NCBI GenBank assembly: GCA_021786945.1
Contig: JAJYMK010000001.1
Coordinates: forward strand, 794-64,793
DNA length: 64,000 nucleotides
DNA from: a bacterium
GTDB lineage: Bacteria; Patescibacteriota; Minisyncoccia; UBA6257; 02-FULL-45-10c
Reading direction: 5' to 3'
A program made the position numbers and the translations under genes. Under the pieces are notes generated by a model. That model was not told the DNA's origin. It worked only from the letters and a program-made list of their open reading frames with translations, and searched no databases. Positions 26,084-62,169 of this stretch are shown here, one piece after another (within the stretch, counting starts at the first letter, position 1; each line of letters opens with the position of its first letter).

Positions 26084-26086
26084 ATA

Positions 26087-43220: not shown

Positions 43221-43310
43221 GGAGGCGTGGCTGAGCGGTCGAAAGCAGCACACTGCTAATGTGTTGAGGGGGAAACCCCTCCGAAGGTTCGAATCCTTCC
43301 GCCTCCGCCA
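43221..43310 (+). tRNA. tRNA-Ser (anticodon GCU), class II, CCA encoded. Integration site of the downstream element.
   Basis: Acceptor GGAGGCG/CGCCTCC, D-arm GCT-GAGCGGTCGAA-AGC, anticodon stem GCACA/TGTGT with loop CTGCTAA, variable stem GAGGGG-GAAA-CCCCTC, T-arm GAAGG-TTCGAAT-CCTTC, then G-CCA. Confidence 0.9.
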
Positions 43311-44876: not shown

Positions 44877-45599
44877 TTAGTATTTTTTTATGTGATAAAT
44901 TAACCGACCTATCGGCTTGACCTCTTCAATAGGGTAGGTCTTCTTAATGCCTGGCTGACTCGTTGTGATCTCTAAAGAGTTACCACGCTTTTTATAATAA
45001 GTCATGATCATTCCGTCTGGCGTATTCAATGCCACGATGTCTCCATCATTAATCTCAATATCCGCATCAAGCATAATCAGGTCGCCGGTGATTATACCTG
45101 CCTCCGGAAATGGAGTGACAGAAACTCTGATACCGAATATACGGTGATCACGCACGATCCCGTTTTTTGGAATAAAAATAAATTCCTCCGCATGTTTGAG
45201 GTGCAGATCAAGATCGTCCACCGGAATCGTGTTGAACAGTGGCATCTTGTAATGAGCAACCTCGTCGGCTGTAATTGTCTTTTTCAATTCCTCCAAACCA
45301 GCCTCCAATTTGTGAGTCATCTCTTCGACACGCTTCTCGCCAGCCTCTTTGATATTAAATTTGTAATCAGAGGAAAGACTAACCTTGTGGATCTTCGCTT
45401 CGGTCCACTGTTTTTTTATTTCATCCTCCGAAGTCTCGTAAGCATTCGCTAAAAGACTCAACTGCTTCTGCGAAGGGAGTCGAGTGTCGTTTTCCAGCTG
45501 GCTGACATAACTGGCAGAAAAGCCAAGGCGATCTGCAATATCCTTGGCTGTCCACTGATTGGTTTCTCTTTGTTTTTTTAGATATGAGCCAAATGACAT
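44877..45599 (-). CDS. CI/LexA-like repressor: N-terminal XRE-family HTH and C-terminal S24 peptidase domain.
   Basis: HTH TAKDIADRLGFSASYVSQLEN. C-terminal S24-like VTPFPEAGIITGDLIMLDADIEINDGDIVAL. Divergent from a Cro-like gene. Confidence 0.8.
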   Translation of the reverse strand: MSFGSYLKKQRETNQWTAKDIADRLGFSASYVSQLENDTRLPSQKQLSLLANAYETSEDEIKKQWTEAKIHKVSLSSDYKFNIKEAGEKRVEEMTHKLEAGLEELKKTITADEVAHYKMPLFNTIPVDDLDLHLKHAEEFIFIPKNGIVRDHRIFGIRVSVTPFPEAGIITGDLIMLDADIEINDGDIVALNTPDGMIMTYYKKRGNSLEITTSQPGIKKTYPIEEVKPIGRLIYHIKKY

Positions 45600-45755: not shown

Positions 45756-45962
45756 ATGAAAAAAACACCAACCAACATTCGACTGAGGGATATTAGAATC
45801 GAGAAAGGGCTAACGCAATACAAACTAGCCCGTATTCTCGGCTTTAAACATAACACAGCGATCAGCCGATATGAGACCGGAAGAAAACGGCCGAATTTGG
45901 AAACCGCCCAGAGAATTGCCCTAGCGTTGGGGGTAAAAGTAGAGGATATTTTTTTGCCTTAG
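45756..45962 (+). CDS. Cro-like XRE-family HTH protein (68 aa).
   Basis: LTQYKLARILGFKHNTAISRYETG, the classic XRE helix-turn-helix. Confidence 0.8.
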   Translation: MKKTPTNIRLRDIRIEKGLTQYKLARILGFKHNTAISRYETGRKRPNLETAQRIALALGVKVEDIFLP

Positions 45963-46041
45963 AAGTTAAGCAAAAACGCTTAATGGAAAAGGTGTGTGAG
46001 GGTCAATAAAAGTGTGAGGTCACTCTTATGAACCAAACCAC

Positions 46042-46320
46042 ATGTCCAAACCAACAAAGGATGAGGAAGCTCTCGTTGAGCTTACCAAAAACGCCTTATC
46101 CGAGGTGCTCGGCCGAGAACCGAGTAAGCAAGAAGTTTGGCGTGTCCATGCTGGCTTTAAACGCATGGCATTCATGCTGTTAGAGCATTTAGATCACATC
46201 AAAAAGTATGACAACGAGAATTCTAATCAAAAGAATAATTCAGAGGATCTGGAAACGGATGACTCGCAAGCCATTAACCCGGAGAGAGCTTTTGGCGAGA
46301 AGGGAGAGCTTGCTGAGTAA
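46042..46320 (+). CDS. Phage hypothetical protein (acidic C-terminus).
   Basis: 92-aa ORF after cro. An alternative overlapping frame, 46208..46420, encodes an Arg-rich 70-aa peptide. Which one is real is unresolved. Confidence 0.35.
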   Translation: MSKPTKDEEALVELTKNALSEVLGREPSKQEVWRVHAGFKRMAFMLLEHLDHIKKYDNENSNQKNNSEDLETDDSQAINPERAFGEKGELAE

Positions 46321-46511
46321 TTTCACAATCCGAGAATTAGAAAACCCGAATATTCGGCGTGGCTTTTGCAGAGCAATGGACAACATCGACCGAGCTCTCC
46401 CGAAATCCAGTGAATGGTAGATAGCACCTTACTCTCCCCTCAATGACGCCAGGCGTGAAGGGAGGAATAAGGCGCGATCTGTGGGTCGGTCACGCCTTTT
46501 TATTCACGGCC

Positions 46512-47078
46512 ATGTCGGACGATAAAATAAAAGTAAGAGATTTAAGAAATGGCGATTGGTTCTGGATTAGCAAAGTACTTCTCGATGAGTATGGAAGCAA
46601 AATTAAACCAATCGGCATCGCTATTTATAATTGCCTGGCTGAACACGCTAATCAGGAGGGTTTTTGTTTTCCATCCCATAAGCTTATCGCTGACAGAATT
46701 GGCTCGAGCGTTTCTAGTGTGCAAAGAGGTATCCGACAACTCATCAAGCTTGGACTAATAAACAAGAAACGCCGAAAATTTTCTAATGTGTATTACCTGT
46801 TGAAAGTAGATAGGTCAGATAGACCGAACTTAAAACAGATCGGTCAGCCTGACCGGCAGTTCGGTCATACAGACCGGTGGGATCGGTCCAATGGACTTAC
46901 TAACAAGAATAAAGAAAAAGATTTAAATAAAAAGAATTACGAGCAAATTAAAAATTTCAAAGAATTAAGGTCGATGTTAGCCGAGAAAATGTCCATTGGA
47001 GGGGTAAAGATAAAAATTATAGACGGTAAGAAGCACATGTGGACGGGACAGAAATGGGTAGCAGTCGAGGATACTTAG
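46512..47078 (+). CDS. Winged-helix DNA-binding protein, phage replication-initiator/DnaD-like N-terminal domain (putative).
   Basis: WFWISKVLLDEYGSKIKPIGIAIYNCLAEHANQEGFCFPSHKLIADRIGSSVSSVQRGIRQLIKLGLINKKRR is a typical wHTH of phage replication proteins. The track start at 46443 lies inside a terminator-like hairpin (GGCGTGA...TCACGCC + TTTTTATT, 46454-46503), so the ATG at 46512 is preferred. Confidence 0.5.
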   Translation: MSDDKIKVRDLRNGDWFWISKVLLDEYGSKIKPIGIAIYNCLAEHANQEGFCFPSHKLIADRIGSSVSSVQRGIRQLIKLGLINKKRRKFSNVYYLLKVDRSDRPNLKQIGQPDRQFGHTDRWDRSNGLTNKNKEKDLNKKNYEQIKNFKELRSMLAEKMSIGGVKIKIIDGKKHMWTGQKWVAVEDT

Positions 47079-47182: not shown

Positions 47183-47503
47183 ATGGATAAATTTGAATCA
47201 AATATTGGTAATTGTCCTCACTGCACAAAAGTCATCTTTAAGAATGGGGCTTTTACTTCTAATGCTTCATTCACGATGCGTTGCCCAAGCTGTCAAAAAC
47301 TTTTAGAAATAGAAGTAAGAACAAAAATTGAGATTACAATTAGGCCTTCTGAAAGATATCTATTGGACAAAAAAATAAAATTAGGAAAATTATCCGTTAT
47401 TTTTGGTTTTACAATGCAACCGCTTAGTGCTCACTGCATGGTCTGTATAATATGCATCGCAGAAACCTGTGGTTGCATATGTTGCCAACCATTTTTTATT
47501 TAA
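47183..47503 (+). CDS. Cys-rich zinc-ribbon protein, hypothetical.
   Basis: CPHC...CPSC ribbon at the N-terminus. C-terminal CMVCIICIAETCGCICC. Confidence 0.4.
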   Translation: MDKFESNIGNCPHCTKVIFKNGAFTSNASFTMRCPSCQKLLEIEVRTKIEITIRPSERYLLDKKIKLGKLSVIFGFTMQPLSAHCMVCIICIAETCGCICCQPFFI

Positions 47504-47597
47504 GCCTTTAATTAAAACAAAAGGAGCTCTTTTGAGCCCCTTTTTTGCCGTTTGTTTGCCCCTTGGGCGAGTTTTCTACACATTTATTAATGGATGA

Positions 47598-49526
47598 TTA
47601 AGTTCTAAATTTATATAATTGTAGACCATTCAAAACAACAATTAGAGTAACGCCAACATCGGCAAAAATAGCCAAAGATAGATTACTTAAACCGAATACA
47701 GCCAAAATTAAGAATATAAACTTAGCGCCTAGCGCAAAATAAGTATTAAATTTTATCTTAGATACGGTCTTTCGACTCAATTCAATCAAATAAGGTATAA
47801 GTTTAAGATCGTCATTCATTAGAGCTATATCTGCACTTTCAATAGCGACATCGGAGCCAAGCGACCCCATAGCTATGCCTACACTGGCTCCCGCCAAGGA
47901 CGGTGCATCATTAACGCCGTCGCCAACCATTGCCACTTTAATATTTTGTTTGGATTTGTCGGTTATGATGTTAACTTTATCTTCGGGCATTTTTTCTGAA
48001 TATATTTCAGATATGCCCAACGCTTGGGAAACATATTTAGCCGATCCGTCATTGTCGCCAGTCACCATGTAACATTTTATCCTCAATTTTTTTAGTTTAT
48101 CAATCGTTGGTCTTGAGTCATTTCTTATTTCATCAGATAAGGCAATTATTCCTTTTACTGTTTTTTCTCCGCCCAAGAATATAACCGTCTTACCTTCTTC
48201 TTCCAGTCTAATTTTTTCGCCCTCCATCTGTTTACTGATTTCAGTATTGTTAAATTGACTTTCAACCAATCCAATTTTTCCCAGGCAGTGTCTGGTATCA
48301 GTGCAGACTGTACAATCTCCTAAAACACCTTCTCCTTGCATTGATTTAAAATTATTAAATTGATGAATCTCTACCTCTTGCGAAACCGCTTTTTCAACTA
48401 CACCTTGTGATAATGGGTGTTCGGAAAATTTACCAAGACCAGCAGAACAGCTTAATACTTCTTCTTTAGTAAAACCATTAAAAGGTATGATATCGGTCAC
48501 TTCGGGTTTCCCCACAGTTAATGTCTTTGTTTTATCAAAACCAATTTCTGTTATTTGAGATAAGTCCTCAATAATCTTACCACCTTTGATCAAAGCTCCT
48601 TTTTGACTGGCGTTACCGAGCGCTGAAAATACTGAGATTGGTGTTGATATCACTAAGGCGCATGGGCAGGCAATAAGCAGAATTGTCAGTGATTGCACCA
48701 GCCAAAATTGCATTGAGCCATTAAGAACAAAGACAGGAACGATAAATAATGCAATAGCAAAAATAGTTACGGCCGGCGTATAATAGCGTGCAAATTTTTC
48801 AATAAATTTTTGTGACTCTGCTTTTTTCTTTACTGCTTCGCCGGTCATGTGAACAATTTTATTCAGGGTTGAGTCTTTTGCCTCTTTTTCGATTTTAATT
48901 TCTAAATAACCGCCATTATTTACTGATCCGGCATATACCTTGTCGCCAATCATTTTACTTTTTGGCAGTGGTTCACCTGTGATTGTCGATTCATCAACCA
49001 GGCTGTCACCAAAAACAATCTCTCCATCAAGACCAATTTTGTCTCCGGGTTTGATTATAATAATTTCTCCAATCCCGACCTCTTCGATTCTTACACTCTT
49101 GCCGGATTTAAGTTCGGCCGTTTTCGGAGAGCTGTTTATTAATTTTTCTAAAGCTAAACGACTTCGCTGAATGCCGTATTCCTCTAAGGCTTCACCCAGA
49201 CCAAACAAAACTACAATGATTGAGGCTTCTTCAAATTTCTGAAGGAATATTGCCCCGATAATTGCAATAGCCATCAAGAGATTGATATCCGAGAAATTAA
49301 ATTTGAATAAATTTTTGAATCCGCTGAGAAATATTTTTCTGCCAAAAATTAAAATCACGGCAATAAAAAACGGAAATCGAATCCACGGACTAAGATCAAT
49401 CGAGAGAAACGAGAGCACTTCCAGCGGAATAATAAAGAATAGTGCACCTACTAACCACCTGATTTTGCTATGTGATGGTTTTATTTTATTTTTTTGTTCT
49501 TTAGAACAATTTTCGCAATCATCCAT
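47598..49526 (-). CDS. P1B-type heavy-metal-translocating ATPase (element cargo) with a non-canonical phosphorylation motif DKTKT.
   Basis: CPC motif LIACPCALVISTP. GDGVNDAPSLA. TGDN-like MVTGDNDGS. DKTKTLT instead of DKTGTLT (I checked the DNA: gat aaa aca aag aca tta). The track start at 49604 overlaps the next gene. The internal Met (MDDCENC, 49526) is preferred. Confidence 0.8.
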   Translation of the reverse strand: MDDCENCSKEQKNKIKPSHSKIRWLVGALFFIIPLEVLSFLSIDLSPWIRFPFFIAVILIFGRKIFLSGFKNLFKFNFSDINLLMAIAIIGAIFLQKFEEASIIVVLFGLGEALEEYGIQRSRLALEKLINSSPKTAELKSGKSVRIEEVGIGEIIIIKPGDKIGLDGEIVFGDSLVDESTITGEPLPKSKMIGDKVYAGSVNNGGYLEIKIEKEAKDSTLNKIVHMTGEAVKKKAESQKFIEKFARYYTPAVTIFAIALFIVPVFVLNGSMQFWLVQSLTILLIACPCALVISTPISVFSALGNASQKGALIKGGKIIEDLSQITEIGFDKTKTLTVGKPEVTDIIPFNGFTKEEVLSCSAGLGKFSEHPLSQGVVEKAVSQEVEIHQFNNFKSMQGEGVLGDCTVCTDTRHCLGKIGLVESQFNNTEISKQMEGEKIRLEEEGKTVIFLGGEKTVKGIIALSDEIRNDSRPTIDKLKKLRIKCYMVTGDNDGSAKYVSQALGISEIYSEKMPEDKVNIITDKSKQNIKVAMVGDGVNDAPSLAGASVGIAMGSLGSDVAIESADIALMNDDLKLIPYLIELSRKTVSKIKFNTYFALGAKFIFLILAVFGLSNLSLAIFADVGVTLIVVLNGLQLYKFRT

Positions 49527-49530
49527 AAAT

Positions 49531-50463
49531 TTAAAATATAATGAATTTATTGAGCACACTTTTGTATACTCTGTAAGGCTTCGGTCCGACAAATGCCTTA
49601 CCATTAATAAATACGGTGGGTGTTCCGTATAGATGTGTTTTTCTTAATTGATTGACCTGATTAGTCACAGCTTCTTTTGTTGCGGAGTCGTTAACACAAT
49701 CATTTATTTTACTGATATCAAAATCAAAATTTTTCAATATCGTATTGATGTATTCGGACTGATAGATTTCCACCTTATCAACAGTAAATAGGTAGTCATT
49801 AAAAGACCAAAATCTATCTCCATATTCCTTATAAACGCAATAACCGACTTCAGATAGAAAATTGGTATTTTCTTTGGCTGGGTAATGAGCGAAAATATAA
49901 TTGGTCTTTTTTTCTCGTACTAACTTTTGAATATCCGGATAAGCCTTTCTTGTGTAGTCGCATTCATAACAGCCGATCAAAACTATCGTATCTTTAGCGC
50001 CGACTTGCTTAGTCGGAAAGGACGATAAGTCAACGCCGTCCAATGATACATTTTTTTCTGATTTTTCTTCAATTCCGCAAGAAGCATTTATTTCAGTCAC
50101 TTTGTTGTTCTCTCCCTTTGGATCAAAAGCACAAAATCCGCTTTGATTTAATCCATTGCAACTACCGTAAAGATAATAGTTATAACCTCCCTTAACGACA
50201 TAGAATGTGCTGGCAATCATAAGAATAAAAAATATCCAGGCAAACACTTCGTAATAACGATTAAAAGCACGAGCCAAAAAGGTTGACCGATTAAGTAGTT
50301 TGGCAACCATGTGGCTCTTAATTTTTTCTTTGAAGCCAGTATTGCACGGACGCAAGGTCACTCTCCTAAACACGCAATCCAGGGCCTCCTTGGCCATTTG
50401 CCTGTGGGTGGCACTGAAAATGCCAAGTATGGAAAATATTATTAAAGCTACAATACAAATCAT
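49531..50463 (-). CDS. Membrane-anchored DsbA-like thiol:disulfide oxidoreductase (CxxC = CYEC) with an N-terminal 2-TM domain bearing two extra Cys pairs.
   Basis: Thioredoxin-fold motifs IGCYECDYT and YGTPTVFINGK (cf. DsbA GVPTFFING). N-terminal TM helices with C..C loops. Confidence 0.6.
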   Translation of the reverse strand: MICIVALIIFSILGIFSATHRQMAKEALDCVFRRVTLRPCNTGFKEKIKSHMVAKLLNRSTFLARAFNRYYEVFAWIFFILMIASTFYVVKGGYNYYLYGSCNGLNQSGFCAFDPKGENNKVTEINASCGIEEKSEKNVSLDGVDLSSFPTKQVGAKDTIVLIGCYECDYTRKAYPDIQKLVREKKTNYIFAHYPAKENTNFLSEVGYCVYKEYGDRFWSFNDYLFTVDKVEIYQSEYINTILKNFDFDISKINDCVNDSATKEAVTNQVNQLRKTHLYGTPTVFINGKAFVGPKPYRVYKSVLNKFIIF

Positions 50464-50473
50464 AATTTTGTTT

Positions 50474-51187
50474 TTAGAAATTTCTAATTTTATTTACTTT
50501 CCAATTCATCAGATGTCTGGTCAGATTTTGATAAATGAACTTTTTTATTAAATTCAGCTTCTGTCTGTGAGCAGGAAAGAAAGAATCTGGATCATCAAAG
50601 ACTCCAAAGTCTTTTTTTACGGCCTCTTTTTGGATATAGGTGTCATTTTCATTCCAATAAATATCTGGGTTTTTGAATTTTTTTGTACCAACACCAAAGC
50701 CACAAAAAGCACCGTCACAATTCTTGAATTTTATTTGTAATTTCTTGATATATTCTAAATCTAAAATAAAACCCTCTATGTTTAACCATTTACCTTTGTA
50801 ATACACTTCCACCCAGCTATGAATAATTTCTTCCGGAGCCAGCTTATACCATATCCCAGTTATAATACCTTTTTGCAATTCTTTATGGATTGTAAATCCA
50901 TGAATCCTGCAAGGAATTCCGATTGCCCGGAGTAATGCCATAAATAAAATCCCTTTTGTATTGCAATGACCATAACCCTCACTTAAAATTTCCGAGGCAG
51001 GAAGGGCATCATCTGCATTATACCCAAACCTAATCTCATCGCGAATAAAATTATAGACTGTATATATTTTTTCTTTGTCGGGGAGGGCTTCCCATTTGTG
51101 GATACTGATTAACTCCTGAATATTCTTGCTGTGAAAATTTAACAAAAGGGTTTCTTCCAAATATTTGTTCATGCTATTATTTGTCAT
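50474..51187 (-). CDS. Transglutaminase-like cysteine protease superfamily protein.
   Basis: Cys in EGYGHCNTKGILFMALLRAIGIPCR. His in HSWVEVY. Downstream Asp. Confidence 0.65.
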   Translation of the reverse strand: MTNNSMNKYLEETLLLNFHSKNIQELISIHKWEALPDKEKIYTVYNFIRDEIRFGYNADDALPASEILSEGYGHCNTKGILFMALLRAIGIPCRIHGFTIHKELQKGIITGIWYKLAPEEIIHSWVEVYYKGKWLNIEGFILDLEYIKKLQIKFKNCDGAFCGFGVGTKKFKNPDIYWNENDTYIQKEAVKKDFGVFDDPDSFFPAHRQKLNLIKKFIYQNLTRHLMNWKVNKIRNF

Positions 51188-52461
51188 ATTATCTTCATAA
51201 TTTTATCCAAACTGTTGATAAAGACGCTCGCTTCTTCCAGGCTGTTGTAGAAATAAAGTGATACTCTGGCGGAATTATAAATTTTCTTATCATTAAACCA
51301 AGAATGAACACAGTGTTGCCCCGATCGAATCATAATATTAGACATCTCATCAAGCATTAAGGCAAATTGGTGCATGTCCACACCATCAATATAAAAAGAA
51401 ATTATACCTGATCTTAAGGCCGGATCACCGGGGCCGATGATCTTTATTTTTGGCCACCTACTGAGCTCATCCGTTATATATTTATTAAGTTCATATTCCT
51501 GCTTTTTTATACTGTCAAATCCCACAGCTTCGAGATATTTAACTGCTTCGCCGAGTCCGATAATTCCGGCGTAATCCTGCAGGCCAGCCTCAAACTTTTC
51601 TGGAGCTTTTAACATTTCATGTTTAGTGTAAGTGGAATACTCAACCGTATCTCCGCCGACCATGAATGGCTCTAATTTTTCCAATAAACTGTATTTGGCA
51701 TAAAAGACTCCAGTTCCGGTCGGTCCTAACATTTTGTGACCAGAAAAAGCGAGAAAATCTACATCTAAATCTTTAGCATCTATTTTTTTATGGGGAGCAC
51801 TTTGGGCGGCATCCAAAAAAACAAGTGCGCCGTTTTCGTGGGCGATTTTTATAATTTCTTTAGCCGGGATAGTCGTGCCATCCAGATTAGAAGTATAAAC
51901 CATTGATATCAATCTCGCTTCTTTTGCCAGCTCTTTATATTTTTCAAGATCAAATGTCCCGTCGTCTTTTGATTTAACAACTCTATGCCTGATCCCTTTG
52001 TTTTTTACCAACATCTGCCACGGAATCAAATTGGAATTATGCTCCTTGTCGGTTGTAAGCACTAAATCACCTTTTACCCATGGGAATGTATGTGCCAGTA
52101 AATTAATGGCTTCTGTGGTATTTCGTGTAAAAACAATTTCTTGTTCGCCAGCATTAATAAACTTGGCAATAATTTGCCTTGCTTCTCTTACTTTTTTTGT
52201 TACTATTTCCCCTAATTTATGAGAACTTCTGCCGGAACAGGCTGGGAATTCAAAATAATATTCATTCATGGCGTCAATGACCTGTCGGGGTTTCAAGCTC
52301 ATACAAGCATTGTCAAAATAGACAATGGGTTTGCCTTTTATTTGCTTACTTACCAGTAGGAAGTCTTTTTTTATTTTTTCGTAATCTAACATGTTTAGAT
52401 ATGTTACTGATCGGGGGCATTTTTTATTGATGCCCCCGATCAATTTTATAATTAGTGACAA
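51184..52461 (-). CDS. sufS: Cysteine desulfurase, SufS/CsdA group (class V aminotransferase).
   Basis: PLP-Lys FSGHKMLGPTGTGVFY. Catalytic Cys in RSGQHCV (cf. RAGHHCA). 425 aa. Confidence 0.8.
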   Translation of the reverse strand: MSLIIKLIGGINKKCPRSVTYLNMLDYEKIKKDFLLVSKQIKGKPIVYFDNACMSLKPRQVIDAMNEYYFEFPACSGRSSHKLGEIVTKKVREARQIIAKFINAGEQEIVFTRNTTEAINLLAHTFPWVKGDLVLTTDKEHNSNLIPWQMLVKNKGIRHRVVKSKDDGTFDLEKYKELAKEARLISMVYTSNLDGTTIPAKEIIKIAHENGALVFLDAAQSAPHKKIDAKDLDVDFLAFSGHKMLGPTGTGVFYAKYSLLEKLEPFMVGGDTVEYSTYTKHEMLKAPEKFEAGLQDYAGIIGLGEAVKYLEAVGFDSIKKQEYELNKYITDELSRWPKIKIIGPGDPALRSGIISFYIDGVDMHQFALMLDEMSNIMIRSGQHCVHSWFNDKKIYNSARVSLYFYNSLEEASVFINSLDKIMKII

Positions 52462-53471
52462 CCTCCATTGCCAGAGCTTCCTGAAGGTGCGACGCCTCCA
52501 CCAAAGCCTGGGGCTGGTGTTTCGCTCGATAATTCAGTAGAACATTCTTTGGGAGGATTATTGAAAGCAGAACAGATAGACTTTAATAAACTTTTACTAT
52601 CCCTTCCGCTTTGGCTTTGAGTGCCATTGATAACCAGTGTTGGCGATCCTTGCACGCCATATTTATTATTGTCGCTTTTAAATATTTCAAATCCCGGGTA
52701 GCTTCCCTTAAACCCAACTTTGTTGTTGAAATTTTCCAACACCTTGTATTCTTTATCGGTTTTAGCAACACAGCTACTGAGTTTAGTTTTATCTACTCCA
52801 GACTGGATAAGACAATTTTCGGCTCCACCGTCACCATCCTTCAAGAAACATTCCAAATAAGTCAAATATTTTGCTGTCTGTTCTTTTTGAATACAGTACT
52901 GATTTAACTGTTCCTTTAATTCTTTCTCACCATGCATGGCATAGTCTGTGAATTTTATCTTAAAGTCAATTTTATCACCCAAGACTTTGGCTACTGGCAA
53001 AATTCCCTTTTCAATCTGAGTCCCGTAAGGGCAGTGACTCATCACAAACAGTTCCACCGCAGGTTTGTCAGATTTCTGTTCGACGGTGGATACAACAGGA
53101 TCAGAGTCTTCTTTTGTGTTTTCTTTACTGCCGGCCACACTATTTTTAATCATCTCAAGAGATTGTGGAAAAAACCTTTTACCATCTTTAGTCACAAAAG
53201 ATTCAATCTTCTGCTCATTGTAGGTCACCTCCAATTTATATAAGTTACCTTCCTTACCTAGCACTTTAACCGTTGCTGACCCTTTGCCCTGTAAAAGTTC
53301 TGAATTCACAAATTCAGTTGATTTAGCCTCAATATCCTTAACTGAAAGCCAAGATGAGGAAGCGAAAGCGTAATACGCAAATCCAGCCAGCCCTGCCAAG
53401 ATAATCCCTGCCGTAATCCCAATTAATAATTGTTTATTCAATATTTTATTTAGTGTCATAATTTTATTCAT
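52452..53471 (-). CDS. Membrane-anchored thioredoxin-fold (DsbA-like) protein with degenerate active site CPYG and a Gly-rich C-terminal tail ending in Cys-His.
   Basis: VMSHCPYGTQ. GSPTLVINGTQ (cis-Pro loop region). N-terminal TM. 339 aa. Confidence 0.5.
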   Translation of the reverse strand: MNKIMTLNKILNKQLLIGITAGIILAGLAGFAYYAFASSSWLSVKDIEAKSTEFVNSELLQGKGSATVKVLGKEGNLYKLEVTYNEQKIESFVTKDGKRFFPQSLEMIKNSVAGSKENTKEDSDPVVSTVEQKSDKPAVELFVMSHCPYGTQIEKGILPVAKVLGDKIDFKIKFTDYAMHGEKELKEQLNQYCIQKEQTAKYLTYLECFLKDGDGGAENCLIQSGVDKTKLSSCVAKTDKEYKVLENFNNKVGFKGSYPGFEIFKSDNNKYGVQGSPTLVINGTQSQSGRDSKSLLKSICSAFNNPPKECSTELSSETPAPGFGGGVAPSGSSGNGGCH

Positions 53472-53529
53472 TAATGTTTAGGTAATAAAAGACTACCCAG
53501 CACAAAACAAAGGTAGTCAACCACAAACA

Positions 53530-53970
53530 TTAATAAATTTTTGGGTTCAAAATCCCAGCCGAGAAAAGAATTACTAGGAGGCTAAGGGGGCCGGGTGATG
53601 GATTAATTTGAAATTTTTGATTACATGAATCACGATCAGAAAAGTTTGTTTTGTTTTTGAAATATCCAAACAGAATAAGCGAAAAGAGTAAGACAAGTAT
53701 TAAAGAAGTCATTCCGTCTGTTTTGATAGTCGCATTAAGAAATTGGGATCTTTCTTGTATGTGCTGGTCGAATGTTTCGCTTACGCAACTATTATCACTG
53801 CAAACTGGTGCACTAAAAGAACAGCCATCTGGTAAGCATATATTCCAAGAAAAAGACAACAGCACCACAAAAGATGTCAAGATAAGAAAAGTGGTAATTA
53901 TGTTGTTTTTTAAGAATCTATGCATATGAATAATTATTCGGGAATATATTCCTGATGACCACAATGACAA
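53530..53970 (-). CDS. Cys-rich membrane protein, hypothetical.
   Basis: 146 aa. Two TM segments. CLPDGCSFSAPVCSDNSC. Confidence 0.35.
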   Translation of the reverse strand: MSLWSSGIYSRIIIHMHRFLKNNIITTFLILTSFVVLLSFSWNICLPDGCSFSAPVCSDNSCVSETFDQHIQERSQFLNATIKTDGMTSLILVLLFSLILFGYFKNKTNFSDRDSCNQKFQINPSPGPLSLLVILFSAGILNPKIY

Positions 53971-54449
53971 GCTGTGCCATCGTTTGTGGACATACTAAAA
54001 TACGACCGCTTAGCGACAATAATTAAATCCGCAAAATTAGGATGGAACGACAAAACTTGCGAATCGGCTTGTAGTGATCGTATGAGCTTTCGGTCCGCTT
54101 CATCCGGTGTTGGGTCAATAGAGCCCGGATGGTTCAATAGAATAATAAACTTCTTGGCCAAAAATAGAGAGAAGTAATGCCACAGCATTTGAGTATCAAA
54201 ATTCTTGGGAGATGATCCGAGGAAAACTTGATGACCGAGGAATAGATTTTTGTCATCAAGATAAATTCCAATAATCTTGGAAACATTCTCGTTTTCCAAG
54301 TCCTTAAGAAATTTATATAAGTCCTCTGGATCACGAACTTGACCCTGAATAGGTAGTTCAACATCAGTCTCAACGATTTCAAATTTCTTCAAATATCGTT
54401 TACCTTCCTGATGTATATTTTCCTCTTTTTTATCTTCTTGTTTTTTCAT
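53934..54449 (-). CDS. RadC-like JAB/MPN domain protein.
   Basis: LLNHPGSIDPTPDEADRKLIRSL matches the RadC JAMM motif H.HPSG.P.PS..D. 171 aa. Confidence 0.65.
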   Translation of the reverse strand: MKKQEDKKEENIHQEGKRYLKKFEIVETDVELPIQGQVRDPEDLYKFLKDLENENVSKIIGIYLDDKNLFLGHQVFLGSSPKNFDTQMLWHYFSLFLAKKFIILLNHPGSIDPTPDEADRKLIRSLQADSQVLSFHPNFADLIIVAKRSYFSMSTNDGTACHCGHQEYIPE

Positions 54450-54468
54450 AGCGATTTCTTATTAAAAT

Positions 54469-55539
54469 TTATATTTTTACATATCTCGTACCACGGCCAC
54501 GCCCGACACGCTTGACCTTACCGAGTTCAACCAGACGATCCAATGCTTGGCGAACCGTACCGAGGGCAATGTCTGTTGCCTTGACGATTTCGCCGGGAGC
54601 CGCCTCGCCGACACTTGAGATATGCTTCCATACCTCAAATTGTTTTGGTGAGAGAGTGTCTTCCACCCTTTCCTCTTCGAGATATGATAATGCTTTTGTT
54701 GCTTGTTCTCTGACAGCTGAAAGAAAAAAATTCAACCAAGGAGAGATTGTGTCGTGATCAGTCTTGAAAGTTTCTTGTGATTTTCGTAGAGCGATATAGT
54801 ATTCATCTTTTCTGCGTTCAACTATTTGCTCGTGAGAAACATACTGAATGAATTGATATCCCGACTGTAAAAGCAATAGATTTGTAAGGACACGAGAAAG
54901 ACGACCATTACCATCTTCGAATGGGTGGATTTTCAAAAACTCAACGATAAAGTTTGCGATGATTAGGAGGTTATGAAAACGATTCTTCTCAAAAGCATCA
55001 TTTGTCCAATCAACAAGCTCATTCATTTCTTTGCCGGTAAGATAAGCTGGTGTGGTTTCAAACATTATTTGAGCAATGTTTCCGTCCAGTCCAAGAACAC
55101 CGACAGTATTCTCTTTCTTTTTATAACCACCACGATGAGCATCGTCTTTGTGTGAATACTTAAGAAGTTGATTGTGAAGTGAAGTGATCAAACTTTCTCT
55201 CAATGGTAAATTCTGATAACTATCAAAAACATTCTGAAGCGTTTCTAAATATCCCTGAACCTCTTGAGAATCACGATCGGCAAATTTTGAGACAGTAAGA
55301 CCTCTCATAACTTTCTCAACCTCTTCATCGGTCAATCTCGCACCCTCAATACGAGTGGAAGCACCGGCTGAAGTGATCAGTGTAGATTTTTTTAGATTGG
55401 TAATGGCTTGCGGAGTCATTCGTAGCCCAGATTTAAATTCACCACGAATTCCGTCAATCTCAGCCAAAAGAGCCACGATCTGTGGATCGGGATTTTTTAT
55501 TCGATGGTCAAATTTGTTGAAAATGTCGTCCATATTCAT
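54469..55539 (-). CDS. Fic/DOC family protein (AMPylator-type) with C-terminal winged HTH.
   Basis: Fic motif HPFEDGNGRLSRVL (HPFx[DE]GNGR). 356 aa. Confidence 0.9.
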   Translation of the reverse strand: MNMDDIFNKFDHRIKNPDPQIVALLAEIDGIRGEFKSGLRMTPQAITNLKKSTLITSAGASTRIEGARLTDEEVEKVMRGLTVSKFADRDSQEVQGYLETLQNVFDSYQNLPLRESLITSLHNQLLKYSHKDDAHRGGYKKKENTVGVLGLDGNIAQIMFETTPAYLTGKEMNELVDWTNDAFEKNRFHNLLIIANFIVEFLKIHPFEDGNGRLSRVLTNLLLLQSGYQFIQYVSHEQIVERRKDEYYIALRKSQETFKTDHDTISPWLNFFLSAVREQATKALSYLEEERVEDTLSPKQFEVWKHISSVGEAAPGEIVKATDIALGTVRQALDRLVELGKVKRVGRGRGTRYVKI

Positions 55540-55860
55540 AGTTTTGGTTGATAATTTAACGCTATAAGTTATATAGTGGATTATAATGGATTACAGCCGT
55601 AAATGCAAGTCAAAGACCTATAAATATCGAAAAGTCCCGAATATGGAGGTTTTATTGGAATATTAGGCTTAAAATTGGGGTTCAAGTACTGGTATTTCCA
55701 ATGTGAATGAAATTATGTTATAATTTAGTCAACTGGTAATGCTTTGCGTTAGTAGCCGTGAAATATGACAGCTTGCTGCTTTTTTTCAATATACAGGTAT
55801 AATAGCGTTAGCTTAGGTAACAGCAAGCTTCATAAAAAACATCCTTTAAATTTATATCTT

Positions 55861-56826
55861 ATGAACAAACAAATTAGTAAAAAATATAAGTCGCTCGACT
55901 TGTTTGCCGGAGTCGGTGGAATAAGGATGGGTTTTGAAAAAGCTGGGTTTGAGACTGTCTTTGGAAATGATTTTGATGCATATTGCAAAATTACCTATGA
56001 TTTAAATTTCAAGGATGTCCCATTAACGGTTGCTGATATTTCAAAAGTTAAAAGCTCCGATCTGCCAAATTTTGATATTCTCCTTGGAGGATTTCCGTGC
56101 CAGCCTTTTTCAATCGCAGGATATCGTAGGGGGTTTCTTGATACAGGACGGGGTGATTTATTTTTTGAAATTGTAAGAATTTTGCGTGACAAAAAACCAC
56201 GAGCAGTTTTTCTTGAAAATGTAAAAAATTTAAAATCACATGATGGTGGAAAAACTTTTAAGATTATCTCTGATGCCCTTGAGGATCTTGGCTATCATGT
56301 AAAGGTAAAAATACTTAATAGCGTAGAATACGGAAATGTGCCTCAGAACAGAGAAAGAGTTTATATTGTTGGTTTCAAATCAAAAAAACAATATGATGCC
56401 TTTGAATTTCCCGAGCCCGTAAAACTAAGCAAAACTATCGCCGATATTCTTGAAAAGAATGTAGACGAAAAATATTATTATACAAATTCACCACTTTATC
56501 CGGAACTCAATAAAACAATCAAAAAAAATAATGTTGTATACCAGTGGCGTCGCATTTATGTTCGGGAAAATAAGAGTGGAGTTTGTCCAACCCTAACTGC
56601 GAATATGGGCATGGGCGGTCACAATGTTCCCCTGATCAGAGATCATAAGGGAATCCGCAAATTAACCCCACGGGAATGTGCAAGGTTCCAAGGATTTCCT
56701 GACAGTTATAAACTTCCAAAAGATTTTCCTGATACGAAGCTTTATAAACAATTTGGTAATTCAGTTACCACAACCGTGATCGAAAGAGTTGCTAAAAAAA
56801 TAAGCAAGGCTTTAGATGTAAAATAG
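55861..56826 (+). CDS. DNA (cytosine-5)-methyltransferase.
   Basis: Motif I LDLFAGVGGIRMGF. Motif IV GGFPCQPFSIAG. Motif VI FLENVKNL. The track start 55765 is probably too early. I prefer the Met (MNKQISKK) at 55861. Confidence 0.9.
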   Translation: MNKQISKKYKSLDLFAGVGGIRMGFEKAGFETVFGNDFDAYCKITYDLNFKDVPLTVADISKVKSSDLPNFDILLGGFPCQPFSIAGYRRGFLDTGRGDLFFEIVRILRDKKPRAVFLENVKNLKSHDGGKTFKIISDALEDLGYHVKVKILNSVEYGNVPQNRERVYIVGFKSKKQYDAFEFPEPVKLSKTIADILEKNVDEKYYYTNSPLYPELNKTIKKNNVVYQWRRIYVRENKSGVCPTLTANMGMGGHNVPLIRDHKGIRKLTPRECARFQGFPDSYKLPKDFPDTKLYKQFGNSVTTTVIERVAKKISKALDVK

Positions 56827-56827
56827 C

Positions 56828-58009
56828 ATGTTTTTAGAAAGACAATCACAAAGTCAGGTTGGTTATTACGAACGGCTCCTAAAGGCCGTTGGTTCGTTGT
56901 CGAATCTTTTCTCAGAATCTCCGGAACCATATCTTGCATCACGAGCTACGGAAAATTTATTTTGTAAAGCTTTTGAAGCTCAGAATCTTTCTCGTTCAGA
57001 CGCTTCAGCTGATGCGTCTAAGGGAAAAATTGGATTTGGTATAAAAACATTTCTTGAGGGAAATGGTAGAACAATGCAAAAGGTTGCGGAATTTAATAGT
57101 GACCATTTGATGTTTGGCACTCTTCCGCCCGAGGAAAAAGTAAGAAAAATCGCTGAACTTAGAAATGAGCGTATTTTAACCACGAAGCGTATTTTTGGTC
57201 TGGATGATCTTATTTATCATTGTATAACTCGTAAGGTGGGGAAAATTATTGTATACGAAACTCCCGCCCCACTTATAGATATAAACAGCATAAGAGATGT
57301 TAAGGTCACCGCAAGAGGTGCTACGATACAGTTTTCTGATTCTAACGCTGAATATTCATTTAATAATTCAAAAAGCACTCTTTATAAAAGATTTATAACT
57401 CCCGATCGAGTACTTCTTGATGTGCCTGTAAGGATTTTAACAGACCCATTTTCTGCTGTAGAAAAATTAATATCAGAAGCTGGTCTTATCTTTGCTCCAG
57501 TCAAAGTTTTACCGCATGTATTCTTACCACTATACTCTATGAGGGGTGGTGTTAAGCGCGTACCAGAGAAAAGCGGATTGAACCAATGGAATGCAGCCGG
57601 TCGGCCACGCGATCCAAATGAAATATATATTCCAATTCCTGTGTGGATTCACCGTAAATTTGACGGTTTTTTTCCTCCTCGGGATGGAGCATTCGAACTT
57701 ACGCTCCCAGACGGAACCACTATGAGTGCCAAAGTGTGCCAAGATAATTCCAAGGCATTAATGAGTAATCCTAATTCAGCATTGGGTAAATGGTTATTAA
57801 GAGATGTCTTAAATTTGAAAGAAAAAGAGCTTTTGTCATATGATAAACTTCAAACCATTGGCCTTGATACGGTTGTAATTTACAAGGTCGATAATGAACA
57901 TTTTGATATTGATTTTACTCGTGTGGGTTCTTATGAGAAATTTGAAATTGAAAATGGTGAAAATAACGAATCAGAAACCGACACAACCCAAGATCAAGAC
58001 GATGAATAA
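56828..58009 (+). CDS. Putative Type II restriction endonuclease cognate to the C5-MTase (assigned by context).
   Basis: 393-aa ORF, stop-start overlap with the MTase (TAGCATG). No recognisable family motif by eye. The call rests on genomic context. Confidence 0.4.
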   Translation: MFLERQSQSQVGYYERLLKAVGSLSNLFSESPEPYLASRATENLFCKAFEAQNLSRSDASADASKGKIGFGIKTFLEGNGRTMQKVAEFNSDHLMFGTLPPEEKVRKIAELRNERILTTKRIFGLDDLIYHCITRKVGKIIVYETPAPLIDINSIRDVKVTARGATIQFSDSNAEYSFNNSKSTLYKRFITPDRVLLDVPVRILTDPFSAVEKLISEAGLIFAPVKVLPHVFLPLYSMRGGVKRVPEKSGLNQWNAAGRPRDPNEIYIPIPVWIHRKFDGFFPPRDGAFELTLPDGTTMSAKVCQDNSKALMSNPNSALGKWLLRDVLNLKEKELLSYDKLQTIGLDTVVIYKVDNEHFDIDFTRVGSYEKFEIENGENNESETDTTQDQDDE

Positions 58010-60148: not shown

Positions 60149-60567
60149 ACAAAAAAGTTGATATCAAATGCACCAAGTACCAAGAAGCGATTCGCCTTAA
60201 GTATAACGGCGAGTCTTATCCTGTTATTGCCCGAAAGCTTAAAACTCCGGTATCAACAGTTGAGAAATGGTTTGCTTTTGGCGGTTTGCTTAAGGAGGAA
60301 TACGAAACTTATAGAGATGGACAGAACGAAATCAGAAAAAGCCAAGCCGAGTGGATACTGCACAAAAGCGTTGAGACTGCCTCATCGATGCTCGTTGCCC
60401 TTATGGGGAGTCCCGATGACGGCGTAAAATTTCGTGCGTGCAAAGAGATACTCGACCGTGAACTCGGAAGCCCCAAAGAAACCATCGAACATAAAGGATT
60501 ATATGGAACAGGCCTAAGCTATGAACAAATACTCAGAAAAGCCAGAGAGAGACCACCCGACGGTTAA
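60145..60567 (+). CDS. Putative terminase small subunit (HTH protein preceding TerL).
   Basis: 140 aa. HTH-like YPVIARKLKTPVSTVEKW. Position immediately upstream of, and overlapping, the large terminase gene. Confidence 0.45.
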   Translation: MNKKVDIKCTKYQEAIRLKYNGESYPVIARKLKTPVSTVEKWFAFGGLLKEEYETYRDGQNEIRKSQAEWILHKSVETASSMLVALMGSPDDGVKFRACKEILDRELGSPKETIEHKGLYGTGLSYEQILRKARERPPDG

Positions 60568-62167: not shown

Positions 62168-62169
62168 AT

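Follow-up and report, generated by a model that had tools for sequence, protein, structure and literature searches.

A tRNA-Ser prophage of Patescibacteria with a Fic-RadC pair and a putative thiol and metal island

A prophage and its cargo genes

The DNA analysed (the window) is a stretch of 64,000 nucleotides from a Patescibacteria genome, a host assignment in line with the window's ValRS, which clusters at 90% or more with a protein labelled 'Patescibacteria group bacterium'. It contains a temperate phage integrated at tRNA-Ser, identified by its integrase, cI, cro, replication initiator, terminase and portal-like ORF, by similarity to IMG/VR sequences and by the mapped tRNA-Ser junction. 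The phage carries a cargo block of eight minus-strand genes. The features are listed by position in the window and strand, with supporting matches in brackets.

43221-43310, plus: tRNA-Ser(GCT), left attachment site of the prophage (ARAGORN, Rfam)
43256-44830, minus: large serine recombinase, the phage integrase (Resolvase, Recombinase and Zn_ribbon_recom domains; PHROG 95 integrase, 1.5e-96)
44877-45599, minus: cI-like repressor with HTH and S24 peptidase, on the cargo strand (domain/PHROG matches)
45756-47078, plus: Cro-like HTH protein, 92-aa ORF and replication initiator (46443-47078) (HTH_3; PHROG replication-initiation families)
47519-47544, minus: terminator-like hairpin closing the cargo operon, 3' of the ATPase
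47598-49526, minus: ZntA-like P1B ATPase, 642 aa (TIGR01525, 551 bits, cut-off 346; TIGR01512, 484 bits, cut-off 313.5)
49531-50463, minus: two-helix five-cysteine membrane domain (50044-50463) fused to an extracytoplasmic DsbA domain with CYEC at 165-168 and GTPT at 280 (Pfam Thioredoxin_4, DSBA)
50474-51187, minus: cytoplasmic transglutaminase-like (papain-fold) protein, a variable island member (Transglut_core, 59.8 bits)
51184-52392, minus: type II (SufS-type) cysteine desulfurase (Aminotran_5, 373 bits; TIGR01979, 423 bits, below its cut-off of 475)
52408-52442, no strand: G+C-rich hairpin (stem of 12-14 bp) within the 59 nt that separate SufS from the CPYG gene
52452-53471, minus: membrane-anchored monothiol DsbA-like protein (CPYG at 147) with a Gly/Ser-rich tail and terminal Cys (weak Thioredoxin_4/GILT matches)
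53530-53925, minus: small two-helix membrane protein with a four-cysteine loop predicted to face outward (no family match)
53934-54449, minus: RadC-like JAB protein whose metal motif is degenerate, with LNH for HNH (RadC, 35 bits)
54469-55539, minus: SoFic-type Fic AMPylase with an intramolecular inhibitory motif and C-terminal wHTH (Fic, 59 bits; PADLOC SoFic, 4.5e-44; PHROG 5978, 2.7e-52)
55765-58009, plus: type II R-M pair, a Dcm methylase and an NgoFVII-like endonuclease (domain/defence-model matches)
58305-64000, plus: phage late region encoding a D12 methylase, a ParB-like nuclease and both terminase subunits (small and large), followed by a weak portal/adaptor-like ORF cut off by the window end (domain/PHROG matches)

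The integrase ORF overlaps the tRNA-Ser(GCT) gene. A sister phage, L084, is inserted at tRNA-Ser(TGA), and the sequence shared by the two sites is limited to the T-arm/acceptor region at the 3' end and what lies downstream of it. Relative to L084 the R-M pair is an insertion (blastn breakpoints 55609 and 58005). The late region is 80-87% identical to that of the IMG/VR viral contig L172, with the small terminase subunit at 64%. The sequence-only reading had taken the block for phage cargo flanked by phage modules, and we found these modules on both sides: serine integrase, cI, cro and replication initiator on the left, and Dcm with the restriction enzyme, D12 methylase, ParB-like protein and terminase subunits on the right.

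All eight ORFs of the block were present where that reading placed them, and profile searches of each agreed with the family identities it gave. Source-contig gene calls and ORF overlaps set the starts of the ATPase and SufS at 49526 (642 aa) and 52392 (402 aa); for the Cys-rich membrane protein (131 aa) the start is the ATG at 53925, in agreement with the L084 gene call. The cargo genes are tightly packed, with a 4-nt overlap between SufS and the transglutaminase-like gene and gaps of 4-59 nt. The hairpin at 52408-52442 is not a canonical terminator because the coding (minus) strand lacks a T-run there, and promoter-like sites were no more frequent than expected by chance. At 0.372, the G+C content of the block is host-like (0.363 in the host part of the window against 0.417-0.426 in the phage arms) and not intermediate as had been claimed. 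Since the cargo lies on the strand of the integrase and repressor, it is probably expressed in the lysogen.

Two gene units and their recurrence

By comparison with related phages, we interpret the block as two independent units, Fic-RadC and a six-gene island. The island comprises the Cys-rich membrane protein, the monothiol CPYG DsbA-like protein, SufS, the transglutaminase-like protein, the DsbA fusion and the ZntA-like pump. The division follows from two related phages: L172 keeps Fic-RadC and has methylases and restriction-like genes in the island's slot, and L084 has a gene for a 929-aa ATPase inserted between RadC and the island. The eight genes do not form a single module.

The Fic protein carries HPFEDGNGRLSR at 205 and STRIEG at 61, and the RadC-like gene adjoins Fic in L084 and L172 too. 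Of the suggested toxin/defence pair, the Fic half is upheld by the PADLOC SoFic match (4.5e-44); the RadC-like protein matched none of the defence models and its metal motif is degenerate. The Fic gene is probably an anti-phage or host-control gene, and the unit moves with the phage backbone.

The DsbA fusion is a 310-aa membrane protein whose DsbA domain has S. aureus DsbA, BdbD and MdbA as PDB relatives. It has >1100 homologues, of which the named ones are all from Patescibacteria or unclassified, except for one partial protein from an 'Actinobacteria' MAG. Five cysteines (C3, C30, C40, C102 and C111) are invariant across the family. Topology prediction places C30 and C40 in a strongly positive loop, which is probably cytoplasmic, and C3, C102 and C111 at the outer face, before the DsbA domain with its CxxC. 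The membrane domain matched no family in Pfam, NCBIfam or PDB, and its AlphaFold2 model (pLDDT <50) leaves the fold unresolved.

The desulfurase has SGHK and SGQHC, which in SufS contain the PLP lysine and the catalytic cysteine, and its SufS relatives in PDB score ~300 bits. We scanned the neighbourhoods of 80 metagenome loci with the DsbA fusion as anchor, 61 of which were testable for SufS. In 55 of the 61, SufS was the immediate upstream neighbour of the fusion gene; in 6 it lay one gene further away, and none of the 61 lacked it. Divergent fusions (L181, L182) keep the SufS neighbour, on either side. Stand-alone forms in two Nanohaloarchaea genomes (L173, L179) also adjoin SufS, and the archaeal stand-alone member L174 has no adjoining desulfurase. 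In L173, the pair lies among genes for thioredoxin reductase, glutaredoxin, thioredoxin (Thioredoxin_3) and OsmC, a neighbourhood no less suited to a reducing than to an oxidising pathway. SufE, SufU and SufBCD were absent near SufS both in the window's block and in the 80 loci. Given these conserved neighbours without other Suf genes and a host desulfurase of NifS/IscS type at 23026-24219, we regard the island SufS as distinct from the housekeeping enzyme. Judged by these neighbourhoods, SufS and the membrane-domain DsbA are the invariant core of the island, recurring in Patescibacteria and some ultra-small archaea. We found no description of this pair in the literature.

The other island members are less constant. 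The Cys-rich membrane protein, the CPYG protein and the downstream ATPase join the SufS-fusion pair in 13-14 of the 80 loci (13 for the ATPase); most genomes with the pair have no nearby P1B pump, and genes for a cupin and a TerC/DUF475 protein are more frequent downstream of the pair. A Falkowbacteria island has the same gene order, including the transglutaminase-like gene, between tRNA-Ser and a serine recombinase. The set also occurs in changed order (ATPase-SufS-transglutaminase-fusion; L086) and in a chromosomal version (L176). In a control of 80 loci anchored on the transglutaminase-like gene, neither SufS nor DsbA was found (0/80). The expectation that redox, sulfur and metal genes recur together was supported, by SufS near the fusion in 61 of 61 testable loci and by the extended set in 13-14. 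The idea of a module moved by a phage holds in that the phage carries the set; the set is also chromosomal, and the phage version is a mobile, extended copy of a widespread Patescibacteria pair.

The transglutaminase-like protein (AF2 pLDDT 84) has 3isr, a putative Cys protease, as its closest fold and is 55-65% identical to Firmicutes and Spirochaete proteins. Its identity stands as earlier proposed, and its island membership is only occasional: the gene occurred in one of the 80 scanned loci and in three further loci that we looked up, and its slot is elsewhere empty or filled by a methyltransferase. The CPYG protein (339 aa) has a single predicted N-terminal membrane helix. Invariant in its family are C147-P-Y-G, H180, C193, C234, GSPT, C300, C310 and C338, and the C-terminal Cys of the family is CH in the window's protein. 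The Cys-rich membrane protein matched nothing in profile-family searches including Pfam, NCBIfam and PHROG; its family invariants are C-x-P-x-G-C, C, C, E, H and E. The pump is most likely a ZntA-like Zn/Cd/Pb exporter, its best solved relative being ZntA (4umv, 378 bits). It has CPC287, ALGAK and ADVGV, and an unusual phosphorylation motif, DKTKT at 331; DKTKT or DKTRT replaces the near-universal DKTGT in every pump directly 3' of the fusion gene.

Compared with L084, dN/dS is 0.03-0.14 in five of the six island genes (0.044 for the ATPase, 0.033 for the DsbA fusion and 0.066 for SufS) and 0.50 in the Cys-rich membrane protein. This strong purifying selection on five genes, together with intact catalytic motifs, argues that the phage holds a working copy of the island. 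Synonymous divergence differs tenfold between adjacent cargo genes, and the comparisons with L172 and L084 mark the cargo slot as a gene-exchange hot spot.

What the island may do

We favour a composite block of two units in which the island is a thiol and metal module expressed in the lysogen, and give this explanation as a whole a probability of about 0.55. The phage would have acquired the island from chromosomes of Patescibacteria or from small islands with tRNA-Ser and a serine recombinase, the mobile version adding two outward-facing cysteine proteins and a ZntA-like exporter to the core. Judged from its genes, the island most likely forms disulfides or protects thiols in the extracytoplasmic space and also exports Zn/Cd/Pb. 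It may make or protect disulfides of surface or secreted proteins, and the pump may expel thiol-seeking metals (Zn/Cd/Pb) or supply metal to surface proteins; either pump role, if true, would improve the envelope fitness of the lysogen. Mutation of dsbA renders E. coli hypersensitive to Cd, Zn and Hg. More speculatively, SufS could pass sulfane sulfur to the cytoplasmic cysteine pair of the fusion, and this sulfur, as it is reduced to H2S, could act as an electron sink for re-oxidation of the DsbA domain. Such a sink would fit organisms thought to be without quinones; to our knowledge, quinone synthesis and respiratory chains are generally missing from Patescibacteria. There is precedent for the chemistry: DsbA is oxidised in vitro by zero-valent sulfur, which under anaerobic conditions also rescues mutants in dsbB and dsbA (PMC11921322). 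Against the favoured explanation count the gene neighbourhood in L173, the L174 member without a desulfurase, the chance-level frequency of promoter-like sites, the low-confidence model of the membrane domain and the DKTKT motif of the pump, which makes its activity less certain; two membrane helices would also be a small number for a relay across the membrane.

The membrane cysteine proteins might instead reduce, like DsbD/CcdA or Scs, with electrons from cytoplasmic thioredoxin passing through C30/C40 to the outer cysteines. We see a minor chance of this. Surface thiols would in this way stay reduced, or incorrect disulfides made under metal stress be repaired, with SufS in a supporting or separate role. 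The predicted topology, a cytoplasmic cysteine pair plus outward cysteines, follows the logic of a DsbD-type relay, the monothiol CPYG protein resembles an isomerase/reductase partner more than an oxidase, the link to a metal pump recalls Scs/Cop loci, and L173 sets the stand-alone domain and SufS among the thioredoxin reductase, glutaredoxin, Thioredoxin_3 and OsmC genes. A reductive pathway nevertheless leaves unexplained that the invariant neighbour is a SufS-type desulfurase and not thioredoxin. Neither thioredoxin nor thioredoxin reductase is among the conserved neighbours in the Patescibacteria loci, and the closest likeness of the fused domain is to DsbA, BdbD and MdbA, which are oxidising proteins of Gram-positive bacteria. 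It is quite unlikely that SufS is an ordinary auxiliary metabolic gene for Fe-S cluster or thio-cofactor synthesis in phage or host, with unrelated passengers as neighbours. Cysteine desulfurases and P-type transporters of Patescibacteria phages have been catalogued separately and interpreted in this way (PMC12911398), and the enzyme has every motif of a working SufS. Against this stand the lack of SufE, SufU and SufBCD nearby, the NifS/IscS-type enzyme already in the host, the pairing with the membrane protein, which is invariant in Patescibacteria and present in Nanohaloarchaea, and the survival of the set through a change of gene order (L086).

A metal-detoxification device, in which the pump expels Cd/Zn/Pb, sulfide derived by SufS precipitates the metal and the outward cysteine proteins bind it, seems to us very improbable. 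CdS is known to form from cysteine-derived sulfide, the pump shares motifs with ZntA, which is also its best structural relative, and potential metal ligands are conserved in the Cys-rich membrane family (C, C, C, C, E, H, E) and in the CPYG family (H180 and the C-terminal Cys, CH in the window). The core pair is, however, mostly found without a nearby pump and more often with the cupin and TerC/DUF475 protein downstream, and SufS-type enzymes pass persulfide to an acceptor and release no free sulfide. That unrelated phage passengers were assembled by chance is scarcely credible. The hot-spot nature of the slot and the tenfold spread in synonymous divergence would suit such a history, which is contradicted by the neighbourhood counts: the set recurs on different elements and on chromosomes in the same or changed order, the transglutaminase-anchored control lacks SufS and DsbA, and the genes are under strong purifying selection.

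Comparison with known systems

Like DsbA-DsbB (E. coli), BdbD-BdbC (B. subtilis) and MdbA-VKOR (Actinobacteria), the island combines an external DsbA (CxxC, cis-Pro loop) with a cysteine-bearing membrane partner. Unlike DsbB, BdbC and VKOR, this partner has two helices and not four, is fused to DsbA and has its cysteine pair in a probably cytoplasmic loop, and the constant companion is a cysteine desulfurase instead of a quinone-linked enzyme. DsbD/CcdA and the ScsABCD copper-tolerance cluster likewise have membrane-anchored thioredoxin-fold and small cysteine proteins that are co-encoded and metal-linked, and in the island, too, cysteines are predicted on both sides of the membrane. DsbD/CcdA proteins have six to eight helices, intramembrane cysteines and thioredoxin as electron donor; the island proteins show no sequence relationship to them and neighbour SufS.

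Type II desulfurases need a persulfide-accepting partner. The island enzyme shares the type II SGHK and SGQHC motifs with SufS that works with SufE or SufU, whereas its sole constant neighbour is a membrane protein and its score (423) lies below the SufS cut-off (475). The pump has the motifs of ZntA/CadA (P1B-2 Zn/Cd/Pb exporters): CPC, the TM5 lysine (ALGAK), TM6 DxG (ADVGV), TGE, SEHP and GDGVND. It differs from them in having only an N-terminal CENC and no HMA domain, in DKTKT/DKTRT for DKTGT and in a score of 440, far below the ZntA model cut-off of 1240. The Fic protein resembles the SoFic single-gene anti-phage defence in its near full-length PADLOC match, canonical Fic motif, inhibitory helix motif and C-terminal wHTH. 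Here the putative defence gene is phage-borne and paired with a RadC-like gene.

Temperate Patescibacteria phages with cysteine desulfurase and P-type transporter genes have already been catalogued (PMC12911398). That account treats them as separate cofactor or nutrient genes and mentions neither thioredoxin, disulfide nor transglutaminase. The chemistry proposed here is that of polysulfide-driven disulfide formation, where zero-valent sulfur replaces DsbB anaerobically (PMC11921322); there the sulfur comes from the environment and dedicated proteins play no part, whereas the enzymatic donor and relay of the island are proposals only. What appears to be new is the pairing of a SufS-type desulfurase with a two-helix five-cysteine DsbA fusion that carries a previously undescribed membrane domain.

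The cargo block and its prophage

The eight open reading frames that the sequence-only reading had placed on the minus strand at 47598-55539, as a cargo block, are all present, and profile searches against Pfam and NCBIfam bore out every family name it had given them. The genes are as follows.

47598-49526, minus strand: heavy-metal P1B ATPase (the pump), likely true start 49526
49531-50463, minus strand: DsbA/Thioredoxin_4 protein with a membrane anchor and CYEC (the fusion protein)
between the fusion and SufS genes, minus strand: Transglut_core protein
51184-52392, minus strand: SufS-type class V aminotransferase, likely true start 52392
52452-53471, minus strand: second thioredoxin-like protein with a membrane anchor and CPYG (the CPYG protein)
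53530-53925, minus strand: small Cys-rich membrane protein without a family match (CysTM), likely true start 53925
53934-54449, minus strand: RadC-like protein
54469-55539, minus strand: Fic protein with a winged helix at its C-terminus

Little space separates the genes, a terminator-like hairpin lies 3' of the last one, and their strand is that of the integrase and repressor, opposite to the lytic genes. The GC content of the block had been called intermediate; at 0.372 it is in fact close to the 0.363 of the window's host part and lower than in the phage arms (0.417-0.426). Promoter-like sites were not enriched (26 found, 29 expected from shuffled sequence). A G+C-rich hairpin with a 12-14 bp stem (52408-52442) takes up the greater part of the 59 nt that separate the CPYG and SufS genes; it lacks a T-run on the coding strand and so may act in RNA processing or stability and thereby split the operon. 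Converging on the pump is a 106-aa ORF (47183-47503, plus strand) that had no family match. Its two CxxC pairs are arranged much as in a zinc ribbon, its C-terminus is hydrophobic and very rich in Cys (CMVCIICIAETCGCICC), and it is 96% conserved in L084, a sister prophage. In the host part of the window, a 1087-aa protein with a peptidoglycan-binding domain (11368-14631) has a GC content of 0.39-0.46, against 0.25-0.35 in its surroundings. The host is a Patescibacteria bacterium; its ValRS shares a 90% cluster with a protein named 'Patescibacteria group bacterium'.

The element is a temperate tailed phage, with an integrase at a tRNA junction, a cI/cro switch, a replication module, a terminase and a putative portal. 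Next to the large serine integrase, which overlaps tRNA-Ser(GCT), come two regulators, one cI-like and one Cro-like, and then a replication initiator. The cargo is followed on the right by a Dcm/NgoFVII-type restriction-modification pair, a D12 methylase, a ParB-like nuclease, terminase subunits and a portal-like ORF, which has a weak match (1e-5) and extends past the window edge. The window covers the left 20.7 kb of the prophage, and the right end and structural genes lie beyond it. L084 has integrase and repressor proteins 99-100% identical to those of the window (100% for the integrase) and the same island. It carries an additional 929-aa AAA ATPase (PHP/AAA_23/AAA_21; 4364-7153) between RadC and the island and lacks the Dcm/endonuclease pair. 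We considered L084 as a free phage genome and ruled this out, as it is integrated at a different tRNA-Ser. The same phage is found at tRNA-Ser(GCT) in the window (43221-43310) and at tRNA-Ser(TGA) in L084 (17864-17953). These two targets share only the 3' T-arm/acceptor region and downstream sequence, which places the attachment core in the conserved 3' end. Apparently, the phage can use different serine isoacceptors.

The eight genes had been described as one block; the comparison with viral contigs instead separates them into two units. Three contigs in IMG/VR encode a related Fic (77-86%), and one of these, L172, also has the late-region backbone in common. L172 keeps D12 methylase-Fic-RadC, and two methylases and two restriction-like genes replace the other six cargo genes, henceforth referred to as the island. 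Fic-RadC is thus part of the backbone, and the slot that holds the island is exchangeable. The surroundings of Fic-RadC form an exchange hot spot, filled by the Dcm/NgoFVII-type pair in the window (55609-58005) by the two methylases and two restriction-like genes in L172 (7417-12354) and by the 929-aa ATPase in L084. The proposal that Fic and RadC are a defence pair is supported for Fic, a putative defence protein, which matches the SoFic model of PADLOC over nearly its full length (residues 26-354, 4.5e-44), carries the catalytic HxFx(D/E)GNGRxxR motif as HPFEDGNGRLSR at 205 and has the internal inhibitory motif STRIEG. It is not supported for RadC, which had no match among the PADLOC defence models. 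The Pfam fold match of RadC is weak and above cut-off (35.2 vs 22.1). Its JAMM motif is degenerate: in place of H-x-H, then S-x-x-D, it reads LNHPGSIDPTPDEAD, with Leu at the first His and Asp at the Ser; the L172 protein reads ILINHPGSTDPTPDEDD.

We compared the cargo of the window (47598-55539) with that of L084 (2749-13577). The dN/dS values are 0.03 for the fusion protein, 0.04 for the ATPase, 0.06 for the transglutaminase-like protein, 0.07 for SufS, 0.14 for the CPYG protein and 0.50 for CysTM. Synonymous divergence is ~0.09 in the SufS, CPYG and CysTM genes (similar to the backbone), ~0.5 in the pump and transglutaminase-like genes and 1.0-2.7 in the fusion, Fic and RadC genes. This uneven divergence suggests that cargo alleles were swapped by recombination and retained their function.

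Recurrence of the SufS-fusion pair

The DsbA fusion served as the anchor for neighbourhood comparison. It has >1100 homologues at 62-87% full-length identity, and the named ones are all from Patescibacteria or an unclassified 'bacterium', except for one partial protein from a MAG labelled Actinobacteria. We examined 80 metagenome loci with this anchor, 61 of which have enough upstream sequence. In this sample, which like our other neighbourhood sample is biased to close relatives of its anchor, SufS is directly upstream of the fusion gene on the same strand in 55 of the 61 loci, is separated from it by one inserted gene in 6 and is absent from none. A partial SufS abuts the fusion gene in 16 of the 19 truncated loci. 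The recurrence that the sequence-only reading had put forward as its check is found for SufS and the fusion at 61/61 testable loci, and phage, island and chromosome contexts are all represented.

The larger gene set is restricted to closer relatives. CysTM, the CPYG protein and the downstream ATPase are also present in 13-14 of the 80 loci; these are the closest ones and make up about two-thirds of those with fusion identity ≥72%. In Ca. Falkowbacteria (L177/L178), CysTM, an extra DsbA, the CPYG protein, SufS, the transglutaminase-like protein, the fusion, the ATPase and YibE/F follow in the same order as in the window, and the island sits between tRNA-Ser(GCT) and a serine recombinase. Two further loci (L092 and L109) have a similar arrangement. 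Locus L086 has the changed order ATPase-SufS-transglutaminase-fusion and adjoins a serine recombinase. A chromosomal version (L176) is found near SerRS, Alr, PBP2 and MreC, with a methyltransferase in the transglutaminase slot. Loci with fusion identity ≤69% have only the SufS-fusion pair, among housekeeping genes. The same genes thus occur in unrelated contexts and survive order changes (L086, L181), as expected of a conserved module. When IMG/VR was scanned with the alignment of the DsbA fusion, no viral relatives came up, so the island is not common phage cargo in that database.

On chromosomes (L111-L169), the genes that come after the pair commonly encode a Cupin_2 protein (33 loci) and a DUF475/TerC-family membrane protein (24 loci), and in ~10 loci there are type IV pilin-like genes a few kb upstream. 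Such neighbours hint at a link of the pair to metallation or pilus maturation.

As a control, we compared 80 species genomes (L004-L083) with the transglutaminase-like gene as anchor. The gene has an AraC regulator upstream in 44/80 and was rejected as a module anchor, with SufS and DsbA found in 0/80 each. It abuts an HMA-bearing P1B pump in 5/80 (L027, L028, L059, L065, L067). The ~232-aa protein is unusually conserved, with 55-65% identity across Firmicutes, Spirochaetes and Bacteroidota. Matches to models named '(seleno)lipoprotein' and OsmC '(seleno)protein', and a distant transglutaminase homologue with Se_S_carrier as a neighbour, had suggested a selenium reading; it was discarded because the matches were weak, all scores were below cut-off and no selenocysteine machinery was found.

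The five-cysteine membrane domain and other island proteins

The first 140 residues of the fusion protein are an autonomous domain. A full HMMER search retrieved about 310 clusters at 50% identity, many of them ~300 aa long and presumably fused, others stand-alone at 130-165 aa. C3, C30, C40, C102, C111, R21, F16 and G100 are invariant. No Pfam match was obtained even at E ≤1, nor any NCBIfam or PDB sequence match, and by these searches the predicted two-helix, five-cysteine membrane domain is an undescribed domain family. The stand-alone members belong to Ca. Nanohaloarchaea, and in two of these genomes (L173, L179) the gene abuts a SufS-type desulfurase; in L174, a MAG with archaeal neighbour genes, it does not. 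SufS also adjoins two very divergent fusions (L181 and L182; 29-38% identity), on the upstream side in one and on the downstream side in the other. With the archaeal pairs and these fusions, the pairing with SufS is seen in bacteria and archaea alike and in either gene order. Some stand-alone members have long Cys-rich C-terminal tails, such as that in the archaeal-type gene context of L174, where the gene (6001-6489) has exosome and proteasome genes as neighbours and no desulfurase close to it.

Hydropathy and charge predict helix 1 at residues 1-19, a loop at 20-71 and helix 2 at 72-90. The loop carries C30 and C40, has 12 K/R and 3 D/E, and is probably cytoplasmic; from the positive-inside rule only, we infer that C102, C111 and the DsbA domain lie outside. 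AlphaFold2 modelled the DsbA domain with confidence and the membrane domain at pLDDT <50. The DsbA family assignment is supported by CYEC at 165-168, the cis-Pro loop GTPT at 280, Pfam scores of 29.3 for DSBA (cut-off 25.6) and 45.7 for Thioredoxin_4 (cut-off 23.2), and PDB matches to DsbA, BdbD and MdbA at 1e-6 to 3e-10.

SufS, predicted to be soluble, scores 373 bits against Aminotran_5, has the PLP lysine in SGHK at 217 and the catalytic cysteine loop SGQHC (Cys361), and matches SufS relatives in PDB at ~1e-88. Its score against the NCBIfam SufS model TIGR01979 is 422.9, below the cut-off of 475.1. The host encodes its own NifS/IscS-type cysteine desulfurase (23026-24219, minus strand), which makes the phage SufS an extra, specialised copy. 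The host gene lies between those for an HtrA-like protease and a CtpA-like (S41) protease (21644-22894 and 24809-26095), and no membrane cysteine protein adjoins it.

The CPYG protein has one N-terminal helix; besides CPYG itself, GSPT and the terminal Cys of its Gly/Ser-rich tail are among the invariant features. In CysTM, two helices are accompanied by an outward loop in which four Cys and E, H, E are invariant. The transglutaminase-like protein, also predicted to be soluble, scores 59.8 against Transglut_core (cut-off 23) with C75, H123 and D143 invariant. Its fold matches 3isr and factor XIII cores, only as generic transglutaminase/papain cores at TM-score ≤0.48, and a PDB sequence search with its alignment found no match.

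The pump belongs to the P1B-2 class by CPC287, the TM5 lysine in ALGAK and ADVGV in TM6. It scores 551 against TIGR01525 (cut-off 346) and 484 against TIGR01512 (cut-off 313.5), and its best PDB match is ZntA (4umv). Pfam gave no HMA match for it, the N-terminus having only CENC (residues 4-7), and the canonical DKTGT is replaced by DKTKT at residues 331-335 (48526-48540). Pumps directly 3' of the fusion gene all have DKTKT or DKTRT (the window, L091, L092, L097, L098, L101, L104, L106, L109, L176 and L177), whereas pumps elsewhere in those loci have the canonical Cu-type DKTGT. The altered motif marks a distinct clade of predicted pumps.

Functional readings and known systems

What the analysis establishes for the island is its anatomy, its recurrence, its intact motifs and purifying selection on five of its six genes. 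We read it, with a probability of roughly 0.55, as an envelope module expressed in the lysogen that would combine disulfide formation or protection with export of thiol-seeking metals, or with metal supply to surface proteins. In E. coli, mutation of dsbA causes hypersensitivity to Cd, Zn and Hg, and metallation of secreted proteins is a role of certain P1B pumps and TerC proteins.

A tentative and rather unlikely extension is that SufS and the five-cysteine domain constitute a disulfide-forming system needing neither quinone nor oxygen. SufS would deliver sulfane sulfur from cysteine to C30/C40. Passed on across the membrane, this sulfur would serve DsbA as its terminal oxidant and in doing so be reduced to H2S. 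An upgraded version, with the metal pump added, would travel on phages and tRNA-Ser islands. For the sulfur-as-oxidant step there is a chemical precedent: DsbA is oxidised by polysulfide, which under anaerobic conditions rescues dsbB mutants (PMC11921322).

The membrane cysteines joined to a DsbA domain could also be read as a reducing relay of the DsbD/Scs kind, which we consider unlikely; the DsbA domain is accompanied by SufS at every testable locus. More improbable again is that SufS is a plain Fe-S auxiliary gene. Its fold and active site are those of a cysteine desulfurase, and SufE, SufU or another Suf partner was found neither in the block nor among the conserved neighbours of the 80 loci. 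Detoxification by metal sulfide formation would draw on SufS and the pump together and is very unlikely; the more distant loci keep SufS with the fusion and no pump. Chance assembly of the cargo genes, given this recurrence and the low dN/dS of most of them, is scarcely credible.

The envelope-module reading bears on a wider problem. Patescibacteria and DPANN archaea are thought to lack quinones and respiratory chains, and they rely on pili and surface proteins for host-cell attachment; to our knowledge, disulfide-bond formation in these groups has not been worked out. A quinone-free system, if real, would explain how surface proteins fold in ultra-small symbionts without respiratory chains. 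Full-text literature searches found no paper linking Patescibacteria with SufS or DsbA. The SufS-fusion pair is conserved, specific to Patescibacteria/DPANN lineages and absent from the literature searched. Temperate phages and small integrative islands appear to move a complete, selected envelope-maturation and metal-handling set among ultra-small bacteria, the parts of which figured in earlier surveys only as isolated 'metabolic' genes. A 2025 survey lists cysteine desulfurase and P-type transporters individually among the auxiliary genes of Patescibacteria phages and does not mention thioredoxin, disulfide or transglutaminase (PMC12911398).

DsbB and VKOR are four-helix membrane proteins with two outward cysteine pairs and a quinone site, whereas the N-terminal domain of the fusion protein has two predicted helices and no family match, which sets it apart from them. 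We classify the system as joining two known kinds, phage accessory cargo and Dsb-type systems; what is new is the undescribed domain and the conserved gene pair.
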